A DNA stretch of 19,114 bases, from assembly GCA_045105515.1 (NCBI GenBank), contig JBGCDR010000135.1, forward strand, positions 1-19,114, written 5' to 3'. The notes under the pieces were generated by a model. That model was not told where the DNA came from and ran no database searches. It was given only the letters and a program-made list of their open reading frames with translations. Source of the DNA: Oligoflexales bacterium. GTDB lineage: Bacteria > Bdellovibrionota_B > Oligoflexia > Oligoflexales > Bog-1112. A program made the position numbers and the translations under genes. Below, in pieces: positions 117 to 17,255 of the stretch (its first letter is position 1; each line of letters opens with the position of its first letter).

Positions 117-1601
117 TCAATTGTTAGACAACTCTATTGAGGTTATCTCGCTAACCTTAATATCGTGTTTCTTAATAAGTCGGTATATGTTTGCACGAAA
201 TTGACCTGAGAGCCTGGCGGCCTCAGTAATATTTCCAGAAGAAATTTTTAGAATTTTTTTGATGTAGGTTTTTTCGAATAGTTTTTTTGCTTCCATGAAA
301 TTTTCAGGCATCGTAAAAAATTCATGACCATTTTCATCTTGATTCAAGCTGATGGAAGATTTTTCGAGTTCCTTGAAAGGTAATAAATCTTCTAGGCGCA
401 TCTCGTTTGAGTCAGCAAGGATTACAGCCCTCTCTATAGCATTGCGCAGTTCTCTAATATTACCTGGCCAAGAGTAGCTTTTGATGCGGGCAAACACATT
501 GCTATTAGGACGGCGAATTTTTTTATTGAATTTTTGATTAAAAATCTGAACAAAGTTTTCAACTAGGCTTTCTATATCTTCTTTCCTGTCCTTAAGAGAT
601 GGGAGGTGCATGTGTAAGACCGAGAGGCGATAGAACAGATCTTCGCGGAACTTTCCCTTGTCACGTTCATAGTCTAAATCTCGGTTTGTCGCAGCAATGA
701 CACGTGTATTGACTTTTACAGTATTGCAAGAACCAACAGGCGTTACCTCGCGTTCTTGAAGTACGCGAAGAATCTTTGCTTGCAATTGTAGAGGCATTTC
801 GCCAATTTCATCTAGAAATAAGGTCCCCTTGCTGCAAATTTCAAAAAATCCTTTGCGGTTTTCTTTTGCATCAGTAAAAGCGCCTTTTTTATGACCGAAT
901 AGTTCGGCTTCTAAGAGGCTAGGAGAAAGCGCAGCACAATTTATAGCAAGAAAAGGTTGCGATGATCGTTTAGATAAGTTGTGGATTGCCTTCGCAATGA
1001 GTTCTTTACCTGTTCCTGATTCCCCACTTATTAGCACTGTGGAGTCAACATCTCGAATTCTATAGATTTTATTGATAATTTTAGTTAATTGGGTGCTCTT
1101 GCCAATGATTCCCAGTTTTTCTGTGTCAATTAAGGGAGTCACATCATCTTCATTTTCGATAGAAATAATTGAAGTGAATTTTTTGAGAAATTCATTAGGT
1201 GTATCTGTTTTAAGTAAAAATCCGGAAACACCAAGCTTCATAGCATCCACTGCCAGATTTACGGAGTCATGGGAAGTCAAGATGATTATTTGGGTAAGGG
1301 GTGCAGTTTGAATAATCTCCGAAACTGCCTCTAAGCCAGTTCCGTCACCAAGGTAGATATCCAAGATGATCGTGTCATAATATCTAGATAAAATCAATTT
1401 TCTAAGTGATTTTAAACTATCAGCTTCATCAACACTACAACCAATGCTCCTTAGCAAATTTGCATAAAGGTTAATGATATCATGGTTGTCGTCGACTATA
1501 AGCACTCTATTTTTCCTGAGTGGGTGTTTACCTTTCTGGCTTGCAGATTCGAGTTTGGGCGTTAGTTCGCATTGATTACCAATATCCTGTGATAGAGTCA
1601 T
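117..1601 (-). CDS. Sigma-54-dependent two-component response regulator (NtrC family: REC + AAA+ + Fis-type HTH)
   Basis: Receiver: VLIVDD…IILDIYL. AAA+: Walker A GESGTGKE, GAFTDA loop, Walker B LFLDEIGE, RVIAATNRDL, FREDLFYRL, WPGNIREL. C-terminal HTH: GNITEAARLSG…IYRLIKK. Start moved to ATG at 1601 (MTLSQD), which has AGGA upstream; the ORF-track start at 1688 has no evident RBS. Confidence 0.95.
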   Translation of the reverse strand: MTLSQDIGNQCELTPKLESASQKGKHPLRKNRVLIVDDNHDIINLYANLLRSIGCSVDEADSLKSLRKLILSRYYDTIILDIYLGDGTGLEAVSEIIQTAPLTQIIILTSHDSVNLAVDAMKLGVSGFLLKTDTPNEFLKKFTSIISIENEDDVTPLIDTEKLGIIGKSTQLTKIINKIYRIRDVDSTVLISGESGTGKELIAKAIHNLSKRSSQPFLAINCAALSPSLLEAELFGHKKGAFTDAKENRKGFFEICSKGTLFLDEIGEMPLQLQAKILRVLQEREVTPVGSCNTVKVNTRVIAATNRDLDYERDKGKFREDLFYRLSVLHMHLPSLKDRKEDIESLVENFVQIFNQKFNKKIRRPNSNVFARIKSYSWPGNIRELRNAIERAVILADSNEMRLEDLLPFKELEKSSISLNQDENGHEFFTMPENFMEAKKLFEKTYIKKILKISSGNITEAARLSGQFRANIYRLIKKHDIKVSEITSIELSNN

Positions 1602-1777
1602 GATACTTCCTGATCGAAATGAAAATTGGATTGCGTTCAAGTATTGATAATTGGAAGCCATTATGCTGGTCAGTTTGCTCCTACCCAATTGTAGTATATG
1701 AAATTAGGTATGTTTTGTTCAAGGTATTTCATCCGCTTTAGAAAACTGGCATGCATCTAGTGTACAGCATGGCTAAT

Positions 1778-2059
1778 TTAAGGTATTTGAAAAGATTTAT
1801 AGAGAGTGACTATGCCAATAACAATAAAAATACTCCCTCCTACTCTTTCTAACATTTTAATGGAGACGAAGTGCCCCAAACTGGCACCTGCAAGCACTCC
1901 AATCGCTGAAGCAAGTACCAGTGCACTCGCAGAACCAATGAAAACGTCAAGTGTGGAAGGAGAGGAAGTGGAAGCTCCAAAAGTAATCAACTGTGTTTTA
2001 TCTCCCAGCTCAGCTATAAAAACAGCGACGAAAGTAGATAATATGACTTTAAAATCCAT
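1778..2059 (-). CDS. TMEM165/GDT1 (UPF0016) family membrane protein, single-repeat (half-size) form; putative Mn2+/Ca2+ transporter subunit
   Basis: Signature AELGDKTQL (E-x-G-D-K-T) present once; three hydrophobic segments; 93 aa; AAGGG upstream. Confidence 0.9.
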   Translation of the reverse strand: MDFKVILSTFVAVFIAELGDKTQLITFGASTSSPSTLDVFIGSASALVLASAIGVLAGASLGHFVSIKMLERVGGSIFIVIGIVTLYKSFQIP

Positions 2060-2076
2060 GGCTTAATACCCTTGAT

Positions 2077-2952
2077 TTAAAACATTTTTTTTATATTGCG
2101 CCGTTTATTCCGCCTGAGAAGAGGCCTACGAGTTTGTAGTGGACTTTCTGGTTTTTTACTCGGTATTAATTTACGCTTGGGTTGATTAATTCGAGGTAAA
2201 GGAATTTTTCGCTGATTTTTTAATTCCGAGCTTAGGCCTTCAATTCTACGCTCCAAAATTTGTTGCCAGCTTTTTGTCTCCGATAATTCTAGTTGGAGTT
2301 GAATAAGAACTTGGTGGTTGCTCTGAATAAGGCCTATAGATTCAAGAAAAGCATCATTGATACTGGCAAGTCTATCTAGTTTAGTTTCTGTTTCCTGCCA
2401 ACCACTTTGGATTTGCTTGACTAAAGGCAGTAAAGTTTTGCTAAAAAATTCTTGCTGTATACGAGATAAGCTAAGTAAATTGCCGCCGTATTGCTTTGTT
2501 AAATTGATCAAATGGCTTTGGCTATCGGCAAGCGATTTGAGTGAACTTTTAGAATCCTGCCCTTTTTGCTCAAGCATTTTAGTGAGGTTTTGCTCGGTAC
2601 AGCTTAGATGGTCTAACAGCGATTTACTTTGTTCTGAGAGCTTTTCTGCTGCAGTATTTAGCATCTGTGATGACTTTTGGTGGCTTGCTGTTGCGCGTGT
2701 CCAACTTAAGTAGTTTTCTACATCATTGGGACGATAAAAGGGTCGAATGTAGCGTTCCACACGTTTGCGGCCAACTCTTAATTCATTTCCAGAAATTTGT
2801 CTAAGTCTCGAACGCTTAATTCCTAATTGCTGCATCACTTCTTCAGCATCGAGGGAGAACTCTTTGAAGTAGGGTTCATCTCCTTTTAACCAAAGGCTAA
2901 GGGGTAGCTGGTCATTACCTGAGACTGTTCCCGGCGTGTCTGATTTTTCCAT
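2077..2952 (-). CDS. Hypothetical protein with N-terminal MerR/excisionase-like helix-turn-helix, central coiled coil and basic C-terminal tail
   Basis: 291-aa ORF. LDAEEVMQQLGIKRSRLRQI…PFYRPNDVENY resembles a winged HTH of the HTH_17/MerR type. Heptad-rich L/Q/E/S middle; K/R/P-rich tail. Consensus-like promoter upstream. Confidence 0.75.
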   Translation of the reverse strand: MEKSDTPGTVSGNDQLPLSLWLKGDEPYFKEFSLDAEEVMQQLGIKRSRLRQISGNELRVGRKRVERYIRPFYRPNDVENYLSWTRATASHQKSSQMLNTAAEKLSEQSKSLLDHLSCTEQNLTKMLEQKGQDSKSSLKSLADSQSHLINLTKQYGGNLLSLSRIQQEFFSKTLLPLVKQIQSGWQETETKLDRLASINDAFLESIGLIQSNHQVLIQLQLELSETKSWQQILERRIEGLSSELKNQRKIPLPRINQPKRKLIPSKKPESPLQTRRPLLRRNKRRNIKKMF

Positions 2953-3056: not shown

Positions 3057-4394
3057 CTATTTAAACTTAGCTGAGGGCAAACGTTTGGCATTGATCTCCC
3101 AATCATCTATGGTTTTATATTCCCTAAGAAGTTTTTCGTCTTTTTTATTTTCGACAAACAGTTTAATCGCCACATTGTGAAGACCTTCTGTAAAGGAAGT
3201 GAGGTCCAGGGATATGGCGAAGTTCACGGGGCTTTTTCCCAGTGAGTCGGCTGAGCTAGGCCTTGTTTTTAAATACCTTGATGAAGTGTTTTCTTTGTAG
3301 AACATTGGTACGTTTCCATGTCGCTGCATTTGTACTGATGGATCCAATTCAACGTATATCATGTAGTCATCAGATGTTGCTGTAAACCAGTAATGTTTTT
3401 TTACTTTCTTTTTTCCTTTTAAAAAATCAAGAATTGTTTTTTCCTGGTATTCTGGCATGTTAGTCTCGATATCGAGTGTGGAAGGATTGTCGATAAACGA
3501 AAATCCGTAGTAGAATTGACTGCCTTCATTTAAGATTCTTTTTCCATCCAAGGGGTTGTCTATTAATGCGGGAAGTATCACCGAATTAGAAAAGAACGAA
3601 ACCTCTGTATACATGCCAAGGTCAAAGTTCAGTTTCAGAACTTTATAATTAAAGTTGACCCTCGCGATGCAACGAATGGGTCCATCTTTATATGCTTCTA
3701 ATTCGCTATCGATGTTTTCTTGGTTGATGGTCAAAGTTAAAAAGTATTTGAGGTCAGCACGTAAAAACAATGTAGAGGCATCAATTAAGTGGTAAGGCTG
3801 TTTATTGCCATGATTTATAAAAACGTCATTTATGATGAGATAATTGTTTGGATTAAATGCATAGCGATACCTAGAGGTAAGAATCTCTGCATTTTTTAAA
3901 TTAAATGAAATATAGCTCAGTTTTGATGGAGGAGGAGGGTCGCTAAAATATGCCCCAACGTATATAGCTCCTACCTTTTTAGTTTTGGGGTTTATAAATT
4001 TGATTTCATAAAGGACAGAAGGTTTTTTTACGATCCATTTTGTGGGAATTTTTACTGGTCCCACATCATTTCCCATGACGCTCAGCTCGTCTTTAAAATC
4101 GAAGATTCCATTGCTCAATTTCTGATTGGGAAGTGGGCCTTTAGCTAAGATATAGTCCCCATAACGATCCTTTTCATCGATTTGAAAAGGGATAGGGATG
4201 GCCCTTCCATCGGGTGATGATTTAAACACTCGATACATTCCAACAGGATGATATTGGACAGCTCTGATCGTTTGCGCTGAAATTATGATCGGAACGGTAT
4301 GGATTCCAGCATATATGCGAACTGAAGCGAATAGCGAGATAGTGAAGCCACAAATAAGCCACCGCAATGGATTCCCTTCGGGAATTCTAATCAT
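3057..4394 (-). CDS. Hypothetical exported protein (445 aa)
   Basis: Long ORF with an N-terminal hydrophobic segment ending …SVRIYA (signal-peptide-like). The mature part is aromatic and beta-strand-like; no catalytic motif recognised. Confidence 0.8.
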   Translation of the reverse strand: MIRIPEGNPLRWLICGFTISLFASVRIYAGIHTVPIIISAQTIRAVQYHPVGMYRVFKSSPDGRAIPIPFQIDEKDRYGDYILAKGPLPNQKLSNGIFDFKDELSVMGNDVGPVKIPTKWIVKKPSVLYEIKFINPKTKKVGAIYVGAYFSDPPPPSKLSYISFNLKNAEILTSRYRYAFNPNNYLIINDVFINHGNKQPYHLIDASTLFLRADLKYFLTLTINQENIDSELEAYKDGPIRCIARVNFNYKVLKLNFDLGMYTEVSFFSNSVILPALIDNPLDGKRILNEGSQFYYGFSFIDNPSTLDIETNMPEYQEKTILDFLKGKKKVKKHYWFTATSDDYMIYVELDPSVQMQRHGNVPMFYKENTSSRYLKTRPSSADSLGKSPVNFAISLDLTSFTEGLHNVAIKLFVENKKDEKLLREYKTIDDWEINAKRLPSAKFK

Positions 4395-4795: not shown

Positions 4796-7057
4796 ATGAC
4801 CAATAGACAAAAATCGCAAGAAAAATATCGCTCAATTACGGTTAAAATTTGGGCTGGAGTTATTATTATTAGCTCATGTCTTACCTTATTGACGACCTCA
4901 ATACAAGTTTACTCTGAATACCAAGCAGATTTAAGTGAATTAGATAGACGGATGAATCAGATCAAATATACTTATCTCGAACCTATAGCTTATAGCTTAT
5001 GGTCCTATACAGAAGACTTAATTGAAGTGAATCTAAAAGGTTTGATAGAACTTCCTGATATAAAATATGTAAGAATAATAGAAGATGATGATGAAGTAAA
5101 CTATGAATTAGGTAAGAAACCTGATGATTCTATCAAGAAAAAGACTTTTGATTTAATCTATGCCGAAGACCAACTGAATTATAAAGTTGGTAAACTAGAG
5201 GTCGTAGCATCCTTAAAGAGGATCAATAATAAAATTATCGATAAGATCATCTTTGTTCTGATTAGTCAATTTTTTAAGACATTTCTTGCATCATTTTTAA
5301 TTCTATTCTTAATCAATATGCTGGTAACCAGGCATTTACAATCGATGAAAAATTTCTTTGATAAGTATAATCCTAAATCTAAAAGTAAGCAAAAACTCTC
5401 TTTTTATAGGAAAGTTAATAGAAAAAAAGATGATATTGATTATTTAGGCGATTCAATCAATAGCATGGCTGACAACCTCAATGATCTTTATGAGAATATG
5501 GAGCAAAAAATTAATGAACGTACCACCCAGTTGCAAGAAAAAAATCGTGATATCCAGAATATTTTGAATAATATACATCAAGGTATTTTTACCGTTATGG
5601 AGGGGTGTGTAGTTCATCCGGAATATTCCTCTCATTTAGAATCAATCCTCGAAACTAAAAATATCGCCCATAAAGACCTGTGTTCTCTGCTTTTTTTAGA
5701 AAGTGATATATCTGCAAATGAAGTAAATAAGCTTAAATTAACACTTATGATGATGATTGGAGAAAAATATTTTTATACATGGAGCTTAAATAAGCATCTC
5801 TTGATGGATAGAATCGTAAAAAATTTTAAAGGCTGCAGAAAAAAAACCTTGGAGTTATCATGGTCAGCAATTTTAGATAGGGATGATGTTATCGAAAAAA
5901 TACTGATTACTGTTCGGGATGTAACTCAGATTATAGAATTACAGAAGCAGACTGGAGAACAAAAAGAAGAAATGCACATCTTGGAAATCATTTTAAACAA
6001 AGGGCCTAGATATGTTTCAAATTTTATTGAGACGGGCCGAGGATACATCCAAAAAAGTATAAGCTTAGTAAGTCAAGATAAGATTGAGATGAATTTAGTA
6101 AACGAGCTATTTAGAAATATTCACACTATTAAGGGTAATTCTATGACTGCTGGGTTTCAAATACTAGCAGAACGTATTCATCTTTTAGAAGATACCTGCA
6201 AAAAACTACAAAATGATATTTTATCCTTGGACAAAACGAAATTCCTTCAAGATCTAAGGAGAATAGATTATATCCTCATCCAGTACGAAAAAATATTTTT
6301 AGAAAAATTGGGGTCCATAAATAATATTTCAGAAACACTACCATTGCCTAAGAAATTTTTGAATATAGAGATAGATCTTCCAGAAAACCAGAAAAAAATA
6401 TCTATTGAATTAATGAACCAATATTATAAATCTCTTGCGCTAAATTTAGAATCGATTTTAGATCCAATATTAAGAAATTTAAACAAACTATCTAAACAGC
6501 TAGATAAGCTTAATCCTAAGGTGCAAATGATCGACGAGGAAAATATATTTTTTAAGAAAAAATTCTCTAATATTTTGGGAGATGTGCTCAATCATTGTTT
6601 GCGAAACTCTTTAAGCCATGGTATTGGATCGTCCAGGGAAAGAGCTGAATTAGGTAAAAGTGAAAATGGTTTAATAAAAGTACATCTATATAAAAAAAAT
6701 CAAGTTTATATTCTGGAAATAGAAGATGATGGAAGAGGTTTAAATCTAAAATCATTGTGCCAAAAAAGCTCAATAGACATAGATTTAAGCGAAACCAGAC
6801 AGCATCAAAAAATAGCTGAAACAATTTTTAAATCAGGAGTGAGCACTGCGATGAAGGAGTCTGGGGTTTCTGGGCGAGGGGTTGGGATGGATGCAGTCAA
6901 AGCTTTTCTAAAGGAAAACGACTGTGAAATTAAAATATCTTTTCTTGGCCCTCTGAAGGGAGGATTTCGTGCTTTTAAATTTGTTATCGAAATTCCTCAA
7001 AATCAGGTATTAGATACTTATCTTTATAAGGAGAACCAAGATGAACGAGCTGCCTGA
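4796..7057 (+). CDS. Membrane-bound CheA-like sensor histidine kinase (TM-periplasmic sensor-TM-HAMP-PAS-like-Hpt-HATPase; no CheW domain)
   Basis: Two TM segments; HAMP (DDIDYLGDSINSMADNL); signalling helix EQKINERT; Hpt motif LFRNIHTIKGNS. CheA-type ATPase boxes: NHCLRNSLSHGI, IEDDGRGLN, IFKSGVST, SGRGVGMDAVK. Confidence 0.9.
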   Translation: MTNRQKSQEKYRSITVKIWAGVIIISSCLTLLTTSIQVYSEYQADLSELDRRMNQIKYTYLEPIAYSLWSYTEDLIEVNLKGLIELPDIKYVRIIEDDDEVNYELGKKPDDSIKKKTFDLIYAEDQLNYKVGKLEVVASLKRINNKIIDKIIFVLISQFFKTFLASFLILFLINMLVTRHLQSMKNFFDKYNPKSKSKQKLSFYRKVNRKKDDIDYLGDSINSMADNLNDLYENMEQKINERTTQLQEKNRDIQNILNNIHQGIFTVMEGCVVHPEYSSHLESILETKNIAHKDLCSLLFLESDISANEVNKLKLTLMMMIGEKYFYTWSLNKHLLMDRIVKNFKGCRKKTLELSWSAILDRDDVIEKILITVRDVTQIIELQKQTGEQKEEMHILEIILNKGPRYVSNFIETGRGYIQKSISLVSQDKIEMNLVNELFRNIHTIKGNSMTAGFQILAERIHLLEDTCKKLQNDILSLDKTKFLQDLRRIDYILIQYEKIFLEKLGSINNISETLPLPKKFLNIEIDLPENQKKISIELMNQYYKSLALNLESILDPILRNLNKLSKQLDKLNPKVQMIDEENIFFKKKFSNILGDVLNHCLRNSLSHGIGSSRERAELGKSENGLIKVHLYKKNQVYILEIEDDGRGLNLKSLCQKSSIDIDLSETRQHQKIAETIFKSGVSTAMKESGVSGRGVGMDAVKAFLKENDCEIKISFLGPLKGGFRAFKFVIEIPQNQVLDTYLYKENQDERAA

Positions 7058-7083: not shown

Positions 7084-7809
7084 TTAGATAGTTTTTTGAA
7101 AGTAGCTATTAACAATTTTACTAATTTCTCCAGTTTTTTCCAGATCCACTATTATTTTATTGAACTCTTGTATCCTATTTTTATATTTTGATTTTTGTGA
7201 CATCATGAAATGAAGAGGTAAAGGTGCCACTACAAATGAGCTTCCAGTTTCAAAATTGAGCTCCGTTACTACCTTTTGCAAAATATCTAGATCTCCTGCA
7301 ACAGCATCCACTTTTTTATCCTTTAGCATGCGTACTAGGTTTCCATATTTCGCTGCTTTTGTCCTTTTAAATGTGTTATTCCCATCATATGCTGGCCCTA
7401 AAGTAGCCTTTGATAATTCGCCTACTCTTTTTCCTGATAAGTTATTAAGACTTGAAACATTAAAACCTTTTTGCGGCAATATGCCCATTCGTATTGTCCA
7501 GTATTTTTCACCAATTTCGATACCTTTTGCCTTAGGGTCAGGTAAGGTTACAGTCAAATCACAAACTCCAGTAGAAAGATTCTTGATGATTCTTGGGTAT
7601 GGAGCAAAAATAATATTAGATTTTACGTTGGCTTTCTTAGCAAGAGCTTCTAGTATTTCAGCATTAATTCCTTTGTACTCATTGCGAACCTTTTCTCCCC
7701 ATAATTCTAGTTTTATTAGGCAAAAGTTTATTTTTACTTCGGATAAAGCATGCCGGCTAATCAAAGAAATAAAAATTAAAAATATCAAATTCTTAAACAG
7801 ATTCTTCAT
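7084..7809 (-). CDS. Periplasmic substrate-binding protein, family 3 (polar amino-acid type)
   Basis: Signal peptide MKNLFKNLIFLIFISLISRHALS; GINAEILEALAK, PYPRIIKNLSTGVCD, LSGKRVG, MLKDKKVDAVAG, GEISKIVNSY. Start taken as ATG at 7809, with an AAGGA RBS. Confidence 0.9.
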   Translation of the reverse strand: MKNLFKNLIFLIFISLISRHALSEVKINFCLIKLELWGEKVRNEYKGINAEILEALAKKANVKSNIIFAPYPRIIKNLSTGVCDLTVTLPDPKAKGIEIGEKYWTIRMGILPQKGFNVSSLNNLSGKRVGELSKATLGPAYDGNNTFKRTKAAKYGNLVRMLKDKKVDAVAGDLDILQKVVTELNFETGSSFVVAPLPLHFMMSQKSKYKNRIQEFNKIIVDLEKTGEISKIVNSYFQKTI

Positions 7810-7904
7810 TAATATTTTCCTTAATGGCTTTGAAATTTCTTCATCAACTATTTTAACATGTGATGAAAATCTCTCCCCAATAAGGAGAACTAGACCTGAA
7901 TAAT

Positions 7905-7921
7905 ACCTTGTGGCACAAGGT
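7905..7921. promoter_or_regulatory. Perfect inverted repeat ACCTTGTG-G-CACAAGGT, candidate transcription-factor operator
   Basis: 8-bp arms with a 1-nt spacer, in the divergent intergenic region between the SBP and RNase genes. The spacer is too short for an RNA hairpin of full length. Confidence 0.4.
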
Positions 7922-8201
7922 GGAACCAATGAAAATTACTAAAATGAAGTTTAGGATATTTGGGAGTTTTGCTTTAGTAAGGATAGGTGAGAGCATTCGG
8001 CGGATCAAAATTTTGCAAATTCCAACTTAACGCTAGAAGTACGAGTTTGCCTGACGTATACTTCACCTGCCCAAAACTTTATTGAAAGGGAGGTGTTACC
8101 CAGTTTAAGTTTCGAGCATTATCCCAAACATAGGTCTACTATTCACATACATCTAAAGTTGGTATTCACTTTAAGAATCATTTTACATAGGATGACCCTA
8201 A

Positions 8202-9776
8202 ATGATTAAGATGCTTTCTGTAACATTATTTTTTTTATTATATAGTTTTTCGACCCATGCATATTATCAACGCTTAGATCCTACTGAATTACCGTCTCAG
8301 TACTCTACTGCTAAAGACATTAAAAACCAATTTCTCAGGAATGCCATCGATAAAGGAGTCGTAGTAAGCTATTCTAAGGAGACAATTCAAACAGTTAATA
8401 AGTTTGCTAGCACCTCACTGGATTTTGAAGGCTTGAGCGATTTAACTCATCTGAAATTTGTGACCATTGACAACGATCATTCAAAAGATCTAGATCAAGC
8501 AATGTTTATCGAGTTTAGTGAGTCTCAAAAAAAATATACCCTATACTATGCAATTGCTGATGCCGCTTATTTTCTTAAGCCAGGATCTGAAATTGATATG
8601 CAGGCTGCTGATCGAGCTTTCACTACCTATCTTCCTGGCTTTGATATTCCGATTCTCCCTCGTCAGCTTAGTGAAGGTCTTTGCTCCTTAAATCCTCAGG
8701 AAAAGAGGCGTGCAATCGTTGTCATGGTAGAGTTCTCAGCAGATGGGAAGATTAGCAAGAAAGATTTTGCCCATGCAATTATAAGGAGTGTTGCTCAGCT
8801 TTCTTACCGGAAGGTGCAAGATTATTATGATCAGGGGCCTATTCATGAGTATGCTGGAACCGAGTTTCAAACGACCTTAGACAATCTTCAATCTCTTGGT
8901 TCAAAATTGGTGAAAAATGCGACAGCCCGTGGGGTGGTGGATTATTCTCCCACTGAATTAAGGATCGAACCAAGAGATAAGGATGGAAAAGCGGGTTACG
9001 ATATTATTCATTATAAGCGCTATCCAGTTGAACGCTATAATGAAAAAATATCGGTTACTGCCAATCAAATGGTTGCAGAGTATCTCCATGAGATGGGACT
9101 AAAATCTATTCATAGATACCATCCAAAAAGTGATGATTGGAAGTTTGCTAAAGCTAAGAGAAAGTTGAAAAATCTAATTAAAGGCACTTCTTTAAAAGGC
9201 CCGGTGCATAAGTATATTACTCGGATAACCACCCATCCTGCTCTTGATATCGCTTTAGGTATTATTTGTCGTATCAACGAAAAAGCTATCTATTCAGCTC
9301 AAGATGATGAACATGGGCATTTTGCGTTAAAGGTTGATCATTATGATCACTTTACTGCTCCTATGCGGAGGTATCAAGATGTCATCATTCATCGGATTCT
9401 ACTTGCAAGTATTAATAATGAATCGGTTCCTTACCAAACAAATGAAGCGAGTGTTCCTGAGTATTTGCGACATAGCTATATGGTTGAATATGCCGAATAT
9501 ATCACTGAAGTTGCTAAGCGTGAGGCCGAAATTGAACGAAAAAATGAGGATTTTGTTTCTTCACTTCTTTTGTACTCCCATAGAGATGAAAAGATATCTG
9601 CAAAAGTGAGTTATGTTTATAGTGGCAGCAAAGCTATGGTCTTGCCTAAAGGGCACTTAATTAAGCGCCTTGTATCAAATATTGGACAAGTTAAAGAAGG
9701 TGATATTTTAGATTTTGATTTGGAAGAGTCTGAAATTACAGACAACTTCATTTTGAATCTGATTGCGGCAGAATAG
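8202..9776 (+). CDS. RNase II/RNase R family (RNB domain) exoribonuclease with predicted signal peptide, lacking N-terminal cold-shock domains
   Basis: RNB motifs: DLTHLKFVTIDNDHSKDLDQA, AIADAAYF, RAFTTYLPG…PILPRQLSEGLCSL, HFAL…YDHFTAPMRRYQDVIIHRIL. Short S1-like C-terminus. N-terminus MIKMLSVTLFFLLYSFSTHA. AGGA upstream. Confidence 0.92.
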   Translation: MIKMLSVTLFFLLYSFSTHAYYQRLDPTELPSQYSTAKDIKNQFLRNAIDKGVVVSYSKETIQTVNKFASTSLDFEGLSDLTHLKFVTIDNDHSKDLDQAMFIEFSESQKKYTLYYAIADAAYFLKPGSEIDMQAADRAFTTYLPGFDIPILPRQLSEGLCSLNPQEKRRAIVVMVEFSADGKISKKDFAHAIIRSVAQLSYRKVQDYYDQGPIHEYAGTEFQTTLDNLQSLGSKLVKNATARGVVDYSPTELRIEPRDKDGKAGYDIIHYKRYPVERYNEKISVTANQMVAEYLHEMGLKSIHRYHPKSDDWKFAKAKRKLKNLIKGTSLKGPVHKYITRITTHPALDIALGIICRINEKAIYSAQDDEHGHFALKVDHYDHFTAPMRRYQDVIIHRILLASINNESVPYQTNEASVPEYLRHSYMVEYAEYITEVAKREAEIERKNEDFVSSLLLYSHRDEKISAKVSYVYSGSKAMVLPKGHLIKRLVSNIGQVKEGDILDFDLEESEITDNFILNLIAAE

Positions 9777-9920
9777 TATGATTTGCCACCGTAAAAAAGC
9801 CACTTGTACGAAATATCAGGCGTTTTATTCTCTATAGGGATAAGATGTGTCGCTTCCAATGCCCTTTTCTAATATAATTTAGCAATTAGCAATATTCTAG
9901 ATTTATTAGGAGAGGAAGAT

Positions 9921-10898
9921 ATGTCATATGAAAAGGCAAATCCAGCCCTTAGCAAGTTAATTATTTTTTTTATCCTTCTTCCAGGGTTTGCAGGTGCTGA
10001 GCCCTCGCATACCTCTTTAAGCTTAAGCAATGGCTCTCATGAAATATTTACTGAGCTATATGCTGATAATTCAGGCAAGAAAACTTCAGAAGTAGTTCTT
10101 TATATTACCGGGCAAGGTGATGCTATATCTATGTACGAATATTTGGTAAATGACTTCATTGATAAATTTGGCAGGGATATATTCTTATATGATGTAAGGG
10201 GACAAGGGAGATCGTCTGGAGCTCGTTGTCATATAGATGACTATAAAGATCACCTAGCAGACCTAGAAATTGTTATTAAACATATCATGAAATACTATGA
10301 GAAAATCCATATTGTTGCCCATTCGACAGGAGCTCTGATTGCTTCTCTATATGTATTAGAAGGGTTGGAATCAAGTGCAATAAAATCGTTGAGTCTTATT
10401 TCGCCTTTTTTTGGACTTGCAGGTCCTAGTATTTACCGAAAGTTTGCTGGATTTGCATCTAGGTTTGGTGCTAGCTCTTTAGGTTTAGGGCAAACTCAGG
10501 TTTTACCTTTCAATCCAGCAGTATATGTTTCCACTCGAAAAAATAATTTATTAACCCATGATCCAGAGTTTTATGAAAAGTTTAATGGGCATCCTGAAAA
10601 GTGTGGTACGCCTACATATTCATGGATACAAGCATCAATTTCCGCTCAGAAACGCTTGAAGGAGCTTAAACGCAAGGTTTCTATACCTTTTTTGATGCTT
10701 ACAGCTGGAGAAGATGGTGTTGTTTCCACGGAAAATGCAAAGCAACAGTGTGCTATATGGAATGAAGTAAATCAAGTTTCTTGTACTTATCATGAATATG
10801 AAGGGATGCGGCATGGTTTAATTTACGAAATCAAGGAAGTAAGAGAAGACCTTTATCATAAGATTGGTGAAATTTCACTAAATTCTTCATTAAAGTAA
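9921..10898 (+). CDS. Exported alpha/beta hydrolase, lysophospholipase L2 (PldB)/monoacylglycerol lipase-like
   Basis: DVRGQGRSSG; nucleophile elbow AHSTG; GTPTYSW; acid AGEDGVV; His GMRHGLIYE. Signal-peptide-like N-terminus ending FAGA. Strong RBS AGGAGAGG. Confidence 0.9.
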   Translation: MSYEKANPALSKLIIFFILLPGFAGAEPSHTSLSLSNGSHEIFTELYADNSGKKTSEVVLYITGQGDAISMYEYLVNDFIDKFGRDIFLYDVRGQGRSSGARCHIDDYKDHLADLEIVIKHIMKYYEKIHIVAHSTGALIASLYVLEGLESSAIKSLSLISPFFGLAGPSIYRKFAGFASRFGASSLGLGQTQVLPFNPAVYVSTRKNNLLTHDPEFYEKFNGHPEKCGTPTYSWIQASISAQKRLKELKRKVSIPFLMLTAGEDGVVSTENAKQQCAIWNEVNQVSCTYHEYEGMRHGLIYEIKEVREDLYHKIGEISLNSSLK

Positions 10899-12871: not shown

Positions 12872-12929
12872 AAAGAGACCATAAATCAGATTTATGAAAT
12901 TCCTTAGGTTCATGTGGGAAAGGTCGCCT

Positions 12930-14933
12930 GTGAAAATATATCCTGATACTAAAAAAACCAAGGTCATTTTTTCCAGCAGGGCAGAAGAGCTATTCTACAA
13001 TCTTTGCCGCACCACATTATCGCACCACTGGAAAGTCTACCATTCAGTTAATTTGTCTCAATTTGAGGGCGAGGATGGCCTTAAAGATAATGAAATGGAC
13101 TTTTTGCTTTACCATCCTCTCTATGGAATCTTTGTGGTCGAAGTTAAGGGTGGAAGGATCAAATATGAGGCAGAGCAACAGCAGTTTTACTCCTTGAATA
13201 GACATGGAGAGAGCTTCACCATTAAAGACCCTTTCAAGCAGGCTCTTGTTTGGAAAAGTCGATTCTTACGTCTGCTTAAAAAAAATCACCTAAAGGTGCC
13301 TGTAACCCACTTAGTTTGCTTTCCGTCGGTCACTGCAAAGGATTTTGCAAGCACTGCAGGAATCAATAGTGGTCTAATTATGGGGCGGGATGAAATTAAT
13401 GACATGGAACGTTATCTGAGTAAAACTGCAAAGATATCCCATCCGACACATTTTCTACAATTTCGTGATATTGGTACTGAGCTTGATGGTCTTCTTGTTG
13501 GTAAGAGTTTCACAAGCCGGCTATACATTAGAGATTACATTGATGGGCATGAGCTTAGGGTTCGTGATGTTGAAACAATTTATGATTCTCTAGTGACACC
13601 AATTACCAGCAGCCAAAAGCTTGGAGTTGAAGGCGAAGCTGGGACAGGTAAAACCATGCTGGCTCTACTTATTGCTAAACACTTCCGAGATTTAAGCAGA
13701 AAGGTACTGCTCCTATCGTCAAACCCAATTCTTAATTTATTTCTTAAGCAAGAAACAGGAAAAGGAATCGAGGTAGAAACCTATTCAGGAATTGCAGAAG
13801 CCCATGGTGTCAATCTATTAAACCCTCCTTCTGGTTATGAAGGGAGTCGCTCTGATTGGGTGCAGATTGATGGACCCGTATTGCTGAAAGATTCTATTGC
13901 AGCAGACTTGAGTGTTCCTCCTTACGATGCGATCATCTGCGATGAAGCTCAAGATGTTCAACCATTCTGGTGGGAAGCTTTTGAAGAATTACTTACTCCA
14001 GAGACAGGATGTCTGTATTTATTTTTTGACCGTTCACAGGGTATTTTTGGCTCTGGGGGTGCTGATCGTAAATTTAACCCCGATGATACCCTTCCGATCT
14101 CTCCACCTTTTTTCCCCCTCGTGCATAACTACAGGACTACTAGGGAAATAGCAGGTTTTGCCAGACCTTTTCGTACTGGCGCAACAGTTCTACAAAGTCA
14201 TTGTGGACGCCTTGGCTATAGTCCATCGCTGATTGTTTATAAAGATAAGGAAGATTGTATTAGGCAATTGGTCAAGGTGCTCCGAAACCTTACCCGTGAT
14301 GAAAAAATCAAAGCCGAAGAAATCACTCTACTTTCGGCTCGTGATCCGAGAAGTAGGGAATCTGTTTTATCGGGGCACGATGAAATTGCTAAATTTCCAC
14401 TTCATCGCCTAATTTTTCATAAAAAGAAGAAATGGAAGCAAACCAGGGCTCCTGCAGGGCACCTCTCAGTAGCAACTATCAGTGCTTTCAAAGGTTTAGA
14501 AACTAAGATCGGAATCCTTATTAACCTTAGTGAGTACAATTTGCCATTGAACAATCCAATTATGTCTAGCCTAGTCTATGTAGCCTGCACCAGGGCTAAG
14601 CATATGCTTTATATCTGTGTTAAAGAGGGAGATCCCAAGTTAAAAGAGCTTGAAGATGCCCTATCCCGAATTAAATCTGCAGGAGCACTTGTATTGGAAG
14701 GATCTGAACATGATTTTGAGTTTACTGGTAGAGTAAGTCACTACAACCCATCTCGTTGTGGATGGCTTACGGTGGAAGATGCTGCGTTTGAAAAAAGTAC
14801 GATTATGTTTTTTCCTTCAGATGTAGAAAAAAATGGATTGGCACATGAATTAAAAGTTGGGGTCAAATTAAAATTTAGACCCAAAGTGGAAGGTCCTATC
14901 ACCATCGCAAGTGATCTTAAGTTGGTGATCTGA
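12930..14933 (+). CDS. NERD nuclease / superfamily-1 (UvrD-like) helicase with C-terminal cold-shock-like OB domain
   Basis: NERD/PD-(D/E)xK motifs NEMDFLL…VVEVKGG and DPFKQA. Helicase: Walker A GEAGTGKT, Walker B ICDEAQD, NYRTTREI, motif V TISAFKGLE, motif VI YVACTRAK. Last ~70 aa are CSD-like. GTG at 12930 (GAAAGG upstream) is preferred; ATG at 12894 is the alternative. Confidence 0.9.
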   Translation: MKIYPDTKKTKVIFSSRAEELFYNLCRTTLSHHWKVYHSVNLSQFEGEDGLKDNEMDFLLYHPLYGIFVVEVKGGRIKYEAEQQQFYSLNRHGESFTIKDPFKQALVWKSRFLRLLKKNHLKVPVTHLVCFPSVTAKDFASTAGINSGLIMGRDEINDMERYLSKTAKISHPTHFLQFRDIGTELDGLLVGKSFTSRLYIRDYIDGHELRVRDVETIYDSLVTPITSSQKLGVEGEAGTGKTMLALLIAKHFRDLSRKVLLLSSNPILNLFLKQETGKGIEVETYSGIAEAHGVNLLNPPSGYEGSRSDWVQIDGPVLLKDSIAADLSVPPYDAIICDEAQDVQPFWWEAFEELLTPETGCLYLFFDRSQGIFGSGGADRKFNPDDTLPISPPFFPLVHNYRTTREIAGFARPFRTGATVLQSHCGRLGYSPSLIVYKDKEDCIRQLVKVLRNLTRDEKIKAEEITLLSARDPRSRESVLSGHDEIAKFPLHRLIFHKKKKWKQTRAPAGHLSVATISAFKGLETKIGILINLSEYNLPLNNPIMSSLVYVACTRAKHMLYICVKEGDPKLKELEDALSRIKSAGALVLEGSEHDFEFTGRVSHYNPSRCGWLTVEDAAFEKSTIMFFPSDVEKNGLAHELKVGVKLKFRPKVEGPITIASDLKLVI

Positions 14934-15041: not shown

Positions 15042-17255
15042 CTAGTATAATGAATAAAGCATCTCACGATATTTGGGTAGTGACCATAGGTGGTCATCAA
15101 CATGTAACTCTAACCAATTTGAAGTTATGTTGACTTCCTCCATGATTTTTACACCATCTTCTGCCAGCACGTGGCCTAGAGCGGTTTCGTCATCTGTTGC
15201 CTCTGTTTTGGCTATCAGACTACTTAGCTTATCACGCCCAGTTATGAGTTCATCCACCTTAGCGACGAATTTACGATAAAATTCCTTTTGTACTTGAGAA
15301 GCTTTACCCAATACTTCGTCTTGATAGTCTAGACTTTGACCTAAAACCTGAAGTTGAAGTTGAGCTGCGGGCAGAACATGACTTGAAATAAGGTCTTCTT
15401 GGCACTTAAGCTCGATAATTTTTTTAAGGTTGTATTCCTCAATGAGAACATTGTATCGAGAAACCAATTCATTTTGGCTCTTGTAAATACCCTGCTCAAT
15501 TAGCATTGATTGGGTTTTTTCGTCCTTCAGTACGGAAAGCGCTTGAGGAGTGTTAATGAGGTTAGGTAAGCCACGCTTTTCAGCCTCTTGTCGCCAATCC
15601 TCCGAATATCCATCCCCTTCGAATAGGATATTCTTAGTAGCGAGATAGGTGTCTTTAATTACTTCAATGATATCTTGCTTGCTCGGAGTTCCGTTGCTTG
15701 CTTTGGATTTTAGTAGCGCATTCATTTCTTTCAAAGACTCTGAAACTGCTGCATTCAGGTAGGTAATTGACTTACTTATGCTTTGACTAGCACCTAAAGC
15801 CCTAAACTCAAATTTATTACCAGTAAATGCGAAAGGGGAAGTGCGGTTGCGATCAGTATTGTCTTTGGCTATAATTGGAATCTTCGATAAGTCTAGTTGA
15901 ATCTCTTGTTCTGCGGTTTTAGGAGATTTTTCATATGCGATAGCATCATAAATTCCCGTTAGGGTTTCACCTAAGAAAACACTCATGATAGCCGGGGGAG
16001 CTTCGTTTGCGCCTAATCGGTAGTCATTACCGGCGGATGCTACACTACTTCTCAGCAAGCCACCCCAATCATGAACAGCCTTGATTACTGCTGTTAAGAA
16101 GTAGAGAAAACGAATATTTTCAGCAGGGTGTTCGCCTGGGTTAAGCAGATTGACGCCTTCTTCCGTGGCGAGTGACCAGTTTAAATGTTTCCCCGATCCA
16201 TTGATATCTGCAAACGGTTTTTCGTGGAAAAGTGCTACAAGACCATGACGGCTTGCGACTACTTTGCTTACTTCCATAACTAGTTGATTATGGTCAGTCG
16301 CCAAATTTGCAACTTCGAAAATAGGTGCACTTTCGCACTGACCGGGGGCAACTTCATTGTGGCGAGTTTTGCATGGAACTCCGAGCCTGTAGAGTTCATA
16401 CTCACATTCCATCATAAAATTTAGAACTCTTTGTTTGATCGCACCGAAGTAATGATCTGCCAATTGCTGGTGTTTCGGAGGAACTCGGCCAATGATTGCT
16501 CGGCCACTTTCAACCAGGTCGGGTCTTAGGTCACCAAGGGAGCGATCGACGACAAAGTATTCTTGCTCAGGCCCGCATGTACTAACAACGTGTCCATCTT
16601 TTTCTTCACCCAATAGTTGCAAAGCTTCCTCGGCGTATTGGCTTACCGAAGAAAGAGAACAAAGAAGCGGAGTTTTCTCATCGAGAGATTCTCCCGAATA
16701 AGAAATAAAGATAGATGGAATACAAAGGGTTAAACCATTCTTTGTTTCCACAAGGAACATGGGTGAACTAGCATCCCATGCTGTATAACCCCTGGCTTCA
16801 AAGGTCGAGCGTAGGCCTCCACTAGGGAAGCTGGAAGCATCGGGTTCTTGCTGCATCAGTTCGGTGCCAGTAAACTTTTCAATAGGTGTGTCGTCTTTAC
16901 CGAAAGACAAGAAAGAATCATGTTTTTCAGCAGTTGCACCTGTTTGTGGTTGGAACCAATGGCAATAGTGGGTTGCACCTTTTGATAAGGCCCAGTGTTT
17001 GACAGCGGCTGCAACCCGGTCAGCGAGTTCGGGTGTGACACGCTTTTTACCTCTTGGGGCAGCTCTTAATACTGCCAAGTCCTGGTCAGGGAGAGCATTT
17101 TTCATCATGTCCCAACCGAAGGTATTACAGGCGAAATACTCAGACACTGGAGTTTGAGTGCCATCCTCTTTGAGGGGTTTGTCGAATCTGCGGAGCGTCC
17201 GACTGTTTGTTTTTTGTATGGCTAGTCTTCGGGCTGCTGATCGAGAGTTATCCAC
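15042..17255 (-). CDS. glnN: Glutamine synthetase type III
   Basis: 737 aa. GATHYCHWFQP…AEKHDSF, EPDASSFPSGGLRSTFEARGYTAWD, RHNEVAPGQ, HEKPFADINGSGKH, RLGANEAPPAI, DRNRTSPFAFTGNKFEFRA, LPKYREML. GTG start with AGAGG RBS. Confidence 0.97.
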   Translation of the reverse strand: MDNSRSAARRLAIQKTNSRTLRRFDKPLKEDGTQTPVSEYFACNTFGWDMMKNALPDQDLAVLRAAPRGKKRVTPELADRVAAAVKHWALSKGATHYCHWFQPQTGATAEKHDSFLSFGKDDTPIEKFTGTELMQQEPDASSFPSGGLRSTFEARGYTAWDASSPMFLVETKNGLTLCIPSIFISYSGESLDEKTPLLCSLSSVSQYAEEALQLLGEEKDGHVVSTCGPEQEYFVVDRSLGDLRPDLVESGRAIIGRVPPKHQQLADHYFGAIKQRVLNFMMECEYELYRLGVPCKTRHNEVAPGQCESAPIFEVANLATDHNQLVMEVSKVVASRHGLVALFHEKPFADINGSGKHLNWSLATEEGVNLLNPGEHPAENIRFLYFLTAVIKAVHDWGGLLRSSVASAGNDYRLGANEAPPAIMSVFLGETLTGIYDAIAYEKSPKTAEQEIQLDLSKIPIIAKDNTDRNRTSPFAFTGNKFEFRALGASQSISKSITYLNAAVSESLKEMNALLKSKASNGTPSKQDIIEVIKDTYLATKNILFEGDGYSEDWRQEAEKRGLPNLINTPQALSVLKDEKTQSMLIEQGIYKSQNELVSRYNVLIEEYNLKKIIELKCQEDLISSHVLPAAQLQLQVLGQSLDYQDEVLGKASQVQKEFYRKFVAKVDELITGRDKLSSLIAKTEATDDETALGHVLAEDGVKIMEEVNITSNWLELHVDDHLWSLPKYREMLYSLY

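Follow-up and report, generated by a model that had tools for sequence, protein, structure and literature searches.

RNase II, RNase R and Dis3 are textbook intracellular enzymes of RNA decay, and RNase II degrades RNA hydrolytically and processively in the 3'-5' direction to 5'-nucleoside monophosphates (5'-NMP). Here we describe a gene from an Oligoflexales bacterium that encodes a short protein of the same fold, with an N-terminus resembling a cleavable Sec signal peptide. The gene lies on a 19,114-nucleotide stretch of DNA (GenBank assembly GCA_045105515.1, contig JBGCDR010000135.1), the whole of which was analysed and is called the window below. Like E. coli RNase II (rnb; PDB 2IX0/2IX1), the window protein combines an RNB fold with a C-terminal S1 domain. 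Unlike it, the window protein lacks both CSD1 and CSD2 (the cold-shock domains), carries Gln in place of D210, and begins with a predicted signal peptide instead of a cytoplasmic N-terminus. It also falls far below the RNase II equivalog models, scoring 174.7 against 641.9 for TIGR02062 and 186.4 against 542 for NF003455.

The best matches in both sequence and structure are RNase R enzymes (E. coli, 5XGU; M. genitalium, 7DCY/7DID; B. subtilis, 8CDU), with a phmmer E value of 3e-38 and a Foldseek TM score of 0.80 to M. genitalium RNase R. The RNase R equivalogs are nevertheless not reached (TIGR02063, 261 against 597.85; NF008648, 146.9 against 982). Only positions 217-639 of the 711 in TIGR02063 are matched, and CSD1, CSD2 and the basic C-terminal tail of RNase R have no counterpart. 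RNase R has the motif DxDD where the window protein has DxDQ, and canonical RNase R rows formed a separate clade, with a support of 100, in both of the trees described below.

Three further proteins frame the comparison. The Deinococcus radiodurans RNase II-family protein (PDB 2R7D, 469 residues), a short bacterial RNB protein of solved structure that lacks CSD1 and CSD2, aligned to residues 33-523 of our structural model with a VIA Z of 33.5. Identity in that alignment is 19%, phmmer covers residues 78-212 only, and we know of no report of a signal peptide on 2R7D. The functional analogue of the window protein, with an unrelated fold, is E. coli periplasmic RNase I of the RNase T2 family, a Sec-exported, broad-specificity RNase of the Gram-negative envelope; it acts as an endonuclease, needs no metal and leaves 2',3'-cyclic and 3'-phosphates. 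Yeast Ssd1 (7AM1), like the window protein, has the RNB fold and departs from the signature DxxxxxDxDD (VIA Z 30.6). According to PMC8097288, the Ssd1 active site is wholly lost, and loop insertions block its RNA channel. The window protein, in contrast, keeps three of the aspartates, and across 174 proteins these three and the remaining catalytic residues hardly vary.

The N-terminus resembles a cleavable Sec signal

Residues 1-20 of the window protein read MIK / MLSVTLFFLLYSF / STHA, with YYQ next. This leader has a basic n-region (K3), a 13-residue hydrophobic core, T at -3 and A at -1, and so follows the pattern of a Sec signal cut by signal peptidase I: a basic n-region, a core of about 7-15 residues, a polar c-region and small residues at -3 and -1. 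No Cys occurs in residues 1-25, which leaves no lipobox for a lipoprotein (signal peptidase II) signal, and the n-region (MIK) contains no RR, as a twin-arginine (Tat) signal would. Signal calls here and below were made by reading the sequences by eye and from crude hydrophobicity scores. In the AF2 model, a helix at residues 2-18 is the sole weak part, with a pLDDT of 64 for the block 1-10 and 51 for the block 11-20.

We then considered whether the segment could lie outside the true protein. An in-frame TAA at 8199-8201 abuts M1 on its 5' side. The only in-frame start codons 5' of the catalytic motif are codons 1, 4, 78 and 87, with no ATG, GTG or TTG between codons 4 and 78. A later start would cost the conserved residues 21-77, so the hydrophobic segment belongs to the protein. 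The same-genus orthologue in a second genome (G001; 68% identical) has the same leader layout and offers start codons 1, 4, 68 and 87 only. A solute-binding protein elsewhere in the window (PF00497, 7084..7929, minus strand), which belongs to a periplasmic family, has a similar leader if it is read from an internal Met. The original prediction had described residues 1-20 as signal-like, and the n-region, the core, the -3/-1 residues and the unskippable position of the segment bear this out. Export of the window protein is thus supported as far as sequence analysis reaches, and we infer both export and cleavage after A20.

The signal is confined to one clade

To place the protein among its relatives, we used a word-indexed protein search, which gave 4938 relatives among 8000 scored candidates, and a profile search of 1.84 billion representatives, in which 25,720 relatives reached E<=0.001. 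In the profile search the nine highest-scoring representatives (595-742 bits) all belong to the signal-bearing group, after which the next score falls to 462 bits. Orthologues at 64-78% identity are likewise complete, with 524 amino acids (P0002 and P0003) or 546 (P0004). Sixteen relatives (P0002-P0015, P0022 and P0028; 29-78% identity to the window protein) all carry the signal pattern: a K/R start, then a core about 9-17 residues long, with a small residue at -1. The letters of the leader vary freely across the clade while the pattern is retained, as in real signals. Source names given for relatives are Oligoflexales and Oligoflexia.

Two divergent signal-like proteins appeared among the 121 proteins new in the profile list: P0153, and P0176 if its start is M12. 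The hydrophobicity threshold had flagged seven of these 121, and by eye only these two look like signals. P0039 and P0072 were also flagged by the crude threshold and were rejected, their hydrophobic stretch lying away from the N-terminus.

For phylogenetic analysis the sequences were cut 45 residues before motif I, which kept the signal itself out of the trees. FastTree nonetheless placed the 17 signal-bearing rows in one clade among 119 rows (support 97), and IQ-TREE placed 19 signal-bearing rows in one clade among 55 (SH-aLRT 96). P0061 was left out of the FastTree run (no motif) and P0135 out of the IQ-TREE run (motif filter); the branches of P0153 and P0176 are long, and exactly where these two belong in the tree is unsure. 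No row outside the clade has a signal-like N-terminus in either tree. The check proposed for the signal, namely that it be conserved and clade-specific, therefore came out positive, with 19 of 19 clade members carrying it and none elsewhere in the two trees.

A paralogue subclade (P0005-P0008, 590-609 amino acids) has a more elaborate N-terminus. Its signal-like segment is followed by a second conserved, moderately hydrophobic motif, K/R-[AT]-L-M-x-[LF]-[SG]-[LM]-M-x-S-[PN], and a poorly conserved linker of 60-100 residues separates this motif from the RNB domain. The second motif may associate with the membrane, may cross it a second time and so flip the topology, or may belong to a pro-peptide.

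An RNB domain and an S1-like domain without cold-shock domains

The Pfam RNB domain (PF00773) matches residues 80-404 at profile positions 3-324 of 326, with 255.3 bits against a cut-off of 29.3 (E 1.1e-75). The AF2 model, built on a 48-sequence alignment, has a mean pLDDT of 93.9 and a pTM of 0.90. Structural alignment with VIA matched model residues 33-523 to residues 131-639 of E. coli RNase R (5XGU; Z 39.9) and model residues 38-523 to residues 156-643 of E. coli RNase II (2IX1; Z 37.1), with about 450-460 aligned residues in each case. At the C-terminus, DSSP assigns five strands (465-474, 477-482, 489-492, 502-509 and 518-522) to an OB fold that resembles S1 and cold-shock domains in VIA (Z 5.4-6.2; the Tex S1 domain 5.9, CspA 5.4) and falls inside the full-length alignments with both RNase R and RNase II, which reach as far as their S1 domains.

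Neither an OB_RNB nor a CSD2 match was found in the protein by Pfam. Because the structural alignment with RNase II starts only at its residue 156, CSD1 and CSD2 are absent and the S1-like domain is kept. In their place, residues 21-79 of the model contain a strand (22-25) and two helices (37-50 and 59-70), and from about residue 35 the protein can be aligned with the start of short homologues that have no signal, P0047 for example. The window protein thus consists of an RNB domain and an S1-like domain, with neither CSD1 nor CSD2. The absence of the cold-shock domains had been proposed from the sequence and now agrees with Pfam, with the span of the TIGR02063 match and with the structural alignment. 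The accompanying estimate that the RNB domain begins about 25 residues past the cleavage site lies between the figure from Pfam (60) and that from the structure (about 13-18).

A variant active site

The active-site columns were defined by aligning the protein to the E. coli RNase II sequence of NC_000913.3. D201, D207 and D209 are kept (as D90, D96 and D98), as are N397 and H484. Y253 corresponds to Y143, Y313 to Y203 (in QLSYRKV), R500 to R389, and E390 aligns with E277. The alignment confirms that Y253, Y313 and R500 are kept, as had been noted at the outset; Y143, R389 and E277 are invariant or near-invariant in the signal-bearing clade. The full four-aspartate motif DxxxxxDxDD is absent, with three of its four Asp present. 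The coordinates of these and the other features of the gene are collected in Table 1.

Table 1 Features of the signal-bearing RNB gene, in window coordinates
Feature	Coordinates	Strand	Basis or remark
Shine-Dalgarno-like AGGA	8189..8192	+	9 nt 5' of ATG, read from sequence
Whole open reading frame, signal-bearing short RNB-domain protein	8202..9776	+	ATG start, 524 amino acids plus stop
Predicted Sec/signal peptidase I signal peptide, residues 1-20	8202..8261	+	MIK / 13-residue hydrophobic core / STHA; low-confidence helix in AF2
Mature N-terminal part, residues 21-79	8262..8438	+	Conserved YYQRLDP strand and two helices in place of CSD1/CSD2
RNB catalytic domain, residues 80-404	8439..9413	+	PF00773; genome search gives same coordinates
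Motif I, residues 90-99 (D-NDHSK-D-L-D-Q)	8469..8498	+	E. coli D201, D207, D209; Q replaces D210
Motif TAPMRR, residues 385-390	9354..9371	+	R389 = E. coli R500; invariant in 17-sequence clade alignment
Long linker helix, residues 424-460	9471..9581	+	DSSP on AF2 model
C-terminal S1-like five-stranded OB fold, residues 462-524	9585..9773	+	DSSP and VIA

Is the variant peculiar to this protein? We compared 248 proteins, all of at least 380 amino acids, in a set biased towards relatives of the query; the column of the fourth Asp holds Gln in 174, Asp in 74 and no other residue. The 174 Q-type proteins keep the remainder of the site: D201 in 174, D207 in 171, D209 in 174, Y253 in 171, H484 in 172 and R500 in 172. 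The E390 column is mostly Glu in the Q-type (152/174) and mostly His in the D-type (64/74). The 119 best motif-bearing hits divide into 88 with DxDQ and 31 with DxDD, the two falling in separate clades (support 100), and in the DxDD rows Pfam finds the CSD and S1 domains typical of RNase R. The DxxxxxDxDQ subfamily includes short forms of about 475-650 amino acids and long forms of about 730-790, and occurs in many phyla. The original prediction saw a housekeeping RNase II/R enzyme repurposed for export; the ancestor is instead a distinct short subfamily with the DxDQ motif.

Judged by these columns, the active site of the Q-type proteins is under purifying selection, and a site otherwise conserved almost perfectly would argue for a working variant rather than a decayed one. 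We accordingly treat the window protein, with Gln at the fourth metal-ligand position, as a putative catalyst. The literature urges caution here. In PMC8097288, DxxxxxDxDD is the signature of all known active members of the RNase II family, D201, D209 and D210 are thought to hold Mg2+, and homologues without some of the motif residues may be assumed to be pseudonucleases. PMC8943300 presents a two-metal model and reports that the D209N mutant is inactive. Since PMC8097288 treats such loss of an Asp as grounds for suspecting a pseudonuclease, activity of the window protein cannot be assumed. Our literature search found no assay of any Q-type RNB member and no account of the effect of changing D210 in E. 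coli RNase II; for the latter it returned mostly papers on RNase H1 and APE1.

RNB genes are rare in the phylum

The assembly that contains the window, 90.9% complete, has 461 contigs that total 6.29 Mb. Only two RNB genes were found in it, the window gene and a 47%-identical paralogue (locus L002, 1120..2907, minus strand, contig C53 of the window genome, G000). The paralogue is P0005 except for its called start, and also has a signal-like N-terminus. No protein in this genome reaches the RNase R cut-off. A search for a separate canonical rnr or rnb, proposed as a check on the prediction, thus found none, the only other RNB gene being the signal-bearing paralogue.

Across the phylum such genes are scarce. 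The compared genomes are incomplete assemblies of related organisms, and counts across them are not independent: Pfam places an RNB domain in six of 31 related genomes, all six in one family (f1), and finds none in the other 25, while eight of 131 phylum genomes have an RNB match to the window protein at E<=1e-20 and 123 have none found. Signal-bearing forms occur in five phylum genomes, with two each in G000 and G001 and one each in G005, G006 and G010; signal-less short forms occur in three (G007, G045 and G098). Among control genomes, 11 of 14 have an RNB domain, so that the rarity in the window's phylum is unusual for bacteria. Because the phylum largely does without RNB enzymes, the window gene is, judged by its distribution, accessory and not housekeeping. 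The window genome encodes PNPase (941 bits against a cut-off of 525).

The same family stands out for its nucleotide transporters. Each of the 16 f1 genomes has strong matches to TLC/NTT ATP/nucleotide translocases, as does only one of the 115 other phylum genomes, and the window genome has six full-length paralogues (contigs C74, C181, C166, C40, C393 and C190). Many f1 genomes are small, at 1.8-3.5 Mb. The small genomes suggest a host- or prey-dependent lineage and, going by gene content, the f1 lineage is one that scavenges nucleotides. Neither an RNase T2 nor a UshA-type 5'-nucleotidase was found in the window genome. Two GspD secretins score above their cut-off there, so a route out of the periplasm exists.

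How the protein may act

On balance, we lean towards reading the window protein as a Sec-exported short RNB-family 3'-5' exoribonuclease that harvests foreign RNA. It would be synthesised with a cleavable Sec signal, cut after A20, and would work in the periplasm or, by way of type II secretion, outside the cell. There the mature protein would fold into a funnel-shaped RNB domain with an S1-like cap, and the 3' ends of single-stranded foreign RNA, from prey, host or environment, would be threaded into the RNB channel. The RNA would be hydrolysed processively to 5'-NMP, and the cell would salvage the products. We infer what RNA it takes, where it ends up and its part in salvage. The cold-shock domains being absent, the RNA-binding path is probably shorter than in RNase II or RNase R. 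Unwinding by RNase R is ascribed to its cold-shock domains, and by this analogy the window protein probably lacks helicase-like activity. T2- and barnase-type secreted RNases give 3'-phosphates, which would be less suited to salvage than 5'-NMP. Bdellovibrio has been reported to take up nucleoside monophosphates directly.

Several points weigh against this proposal. Gln (Q99) stands where E. coli has D210, the fourth catalytic Asp, which the original prediction had missed, and we know of no Q-type RNB enzyme that has been tested. The signal call itself depends on sequence reading and crude hydrophobicity scores. Both RNB genes of the genome have a hydrophobic N-terminus and one of them arguably must serve the cytoplasm, while the second hydrophobic segment of P0005-P0008, if it spans the membrane, would flip the topology of this subclade's members. 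The genome is incomplete, so that absences from it mean "not found". Both purH and purM are present; salvage is therefore not obligatory, and an argument for it from purine auxotrophy was dropped. Finally, NTT transporters mainly carry nucleoside tri- and diphosphates, which makes a link from 5'-NMP to these transporters speculative.

Where the RNB domain ends up is the first matter on which other readings differ. The protein might be exported and left uncleaved, its N-terminus acting as a signal anchor that tethers the RNB domain to the inner membrane on the periplasmic side. A positive n-region followed by a hydrophobic segment would indeed place the N-terminus inside and the C-terminus outside, and the 20-residue hydrophobic stretch of P0153 is enough to span a membrane. 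Most cores, however, have only about 9-15 residues, and in every case the c-region that follows is polar and has small residues at -3 and -1, as is typical of cleaved signals, which makes such an anchor improbable. We likewise give little credence to a tether facing the cytoplasm, by which the hydrophobic N-terminus would keep the one RNase II-like enzyme of the lineage at the inner membrane for ordinary RNA decay, in the manner of other RNA-decay enzymes that associate with membranes. No signal-less RNB enzyme was found in the genome, the second hydrophobic segment of the paralogue subclade could return the domain to the inside, and precedents exist in PMC8136821, which reports an inner-membrane location for H. 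pylori RNase R and mentions anchoring of E. coli RNase E and RNase II by amphipathic helices. But the positive-inside rule fits an N-in, C-out orientation, since K/R precedes the core and no cluster of basic residues follows; a transmembrane helix would need longer cores than these; and the subclade of the window protein has only one hydrophobic segment. A cytoplasmic RNB enzyme is, moreover, dispensable in the phylum, because 123 of 131 genomes lack an RNB match at E<=1e-20 and PNPase is present.

Other alternatives accept export and differ in what the protein does. It could be an RNB-fold protein that is not a conventional nuclease and instead binds RNA or performs an altered chemistry with another metal or substrate: Q99 aligns with E. 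coli D210, and DxxxxxDxDD marks all known active members in PMC8097288. Against this, all 174 subfamily proteins have the Gln, D201, D207, D209, Y253, H484 and R500 are each present in 171-174 of them, and a carboxamide oxygen could, we reason, still ligate Mg2+. Known pseudonucleases such as Ssd1, in contrast, lose the whole site (PMC8097288), and we regard loss of conventional nuclease activity as unlikely. An exported RNase could also be offensive, delivered to prey or host cells where it destroys RNA to kill or subvert them, with nutrition secondary. The signal peptide conserved in the clade, the many NTT genes that are a hallmark of nucleotide parasitism in the lineage, and the secretins of the genome would all suit such a role. 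No immunity-like small gene or delivery domain adjoins the RNB gene, though, and we saw no sign of a route into the target cytoplasm. Known RNase toxins are endonucleases, and we think an offensive role has only a small chance of being correct.

The surrounding locus

The neighbours of the RNB gene in the window are the solute-binding protein described above and an alpha/beta hydrolase (Pfam Hydrolase_4; 9921..10898, plus strand), which lies 3' of the RNB gene and has its own signal-like N-terminus. At the locus of the same-genus orthologue (L043), an alpha/beta hydrolase with such an N-terminus also lies 3' of the RNB gene (7153..8151, plus strand), with one gene inserted. At a further locus (L047), a GDPD-like protein, identified by eye and with a signal-like N-terminus, begins 26 bp past the RNB gene (3322..4161, plus strand). 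Conserved synteny around the RNB gene was considered and rejected, the shared neighbours being too few and the loci too closely related.

Further genes of the window include a 753-residue sensor with a periplasmic CHASE5 domain, an Hpt and an HATPase_c domain (4796..7057, plus strand), which is situated between neighbours of the RNB gene and is absent from L043; a 679-residue protein in which a nuclease-related NERD domain at the N-terminus is joined to helicase domains (SLFN-g3_helicase, UvrD_C; 12894..14933, plus strand); and a type III glutamine synthetase of 737 residues (GSIII_N, Gln-synt_C, Gln-synt_C-ter; 15042..17255, minus strand). Two adjacent genes of 291 and 445 amino acids (2077..2952 and 3057..4394, both minus strand) have no Pfam match. 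A pair at L043, 5' of the RNB orthologue (460..1332 and 1437..2789, both minus strand; 290 and 450 amino acids), resembles them in length and order, and its 450-residue protein starts with a hydrophobic segment.

A scan for promoters and terminators over positions 7900-10000 gave chance-level results (eight promoter-like sites against 6.7 expected, one terminator-like site against 1.2 expected). Three DNA sequencing runs contain the gene, all from one study and possible sources of the window DNA; no RNA run is listed.

Implications

The original prediction knew of no exported member of the RNB family, and our literature search, whose coverage excludes most subscription journals, found none either. 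It is possible, though in our judgement doubtful, that the clade described here is the first exported branch of the RNB superfamily, in which predatory or nucleotide-parasitic Oligoflexales, from a phylum where canonical RNase II/R was scarcely found, gave a short, competent DxDQ variant a signal peptide and use it beyond the cytoplasm to turn host or prey RNA into 5'-nucleotides. Equally tentative is the suggestion that, in such an exported branch, these 5'-nucleotides feed a salvage system that includes the many nucleotide translocases.

If true, the exported branch would add a hydrolytic, processive, 5'-NMP-yielding class to the extracellular and periplasmic nucleases, and would suggest how host-dependent or predatory bacteria mine foreign RNA. 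Export aside, the DxDQ subfamily (174 of the 248 proteins compared) questions the four-aspartate motif as a requirement for activity in the family. If its site is competent, Gln at the fourth metal ligand would mark a so far unstudied active-site variant of the family.

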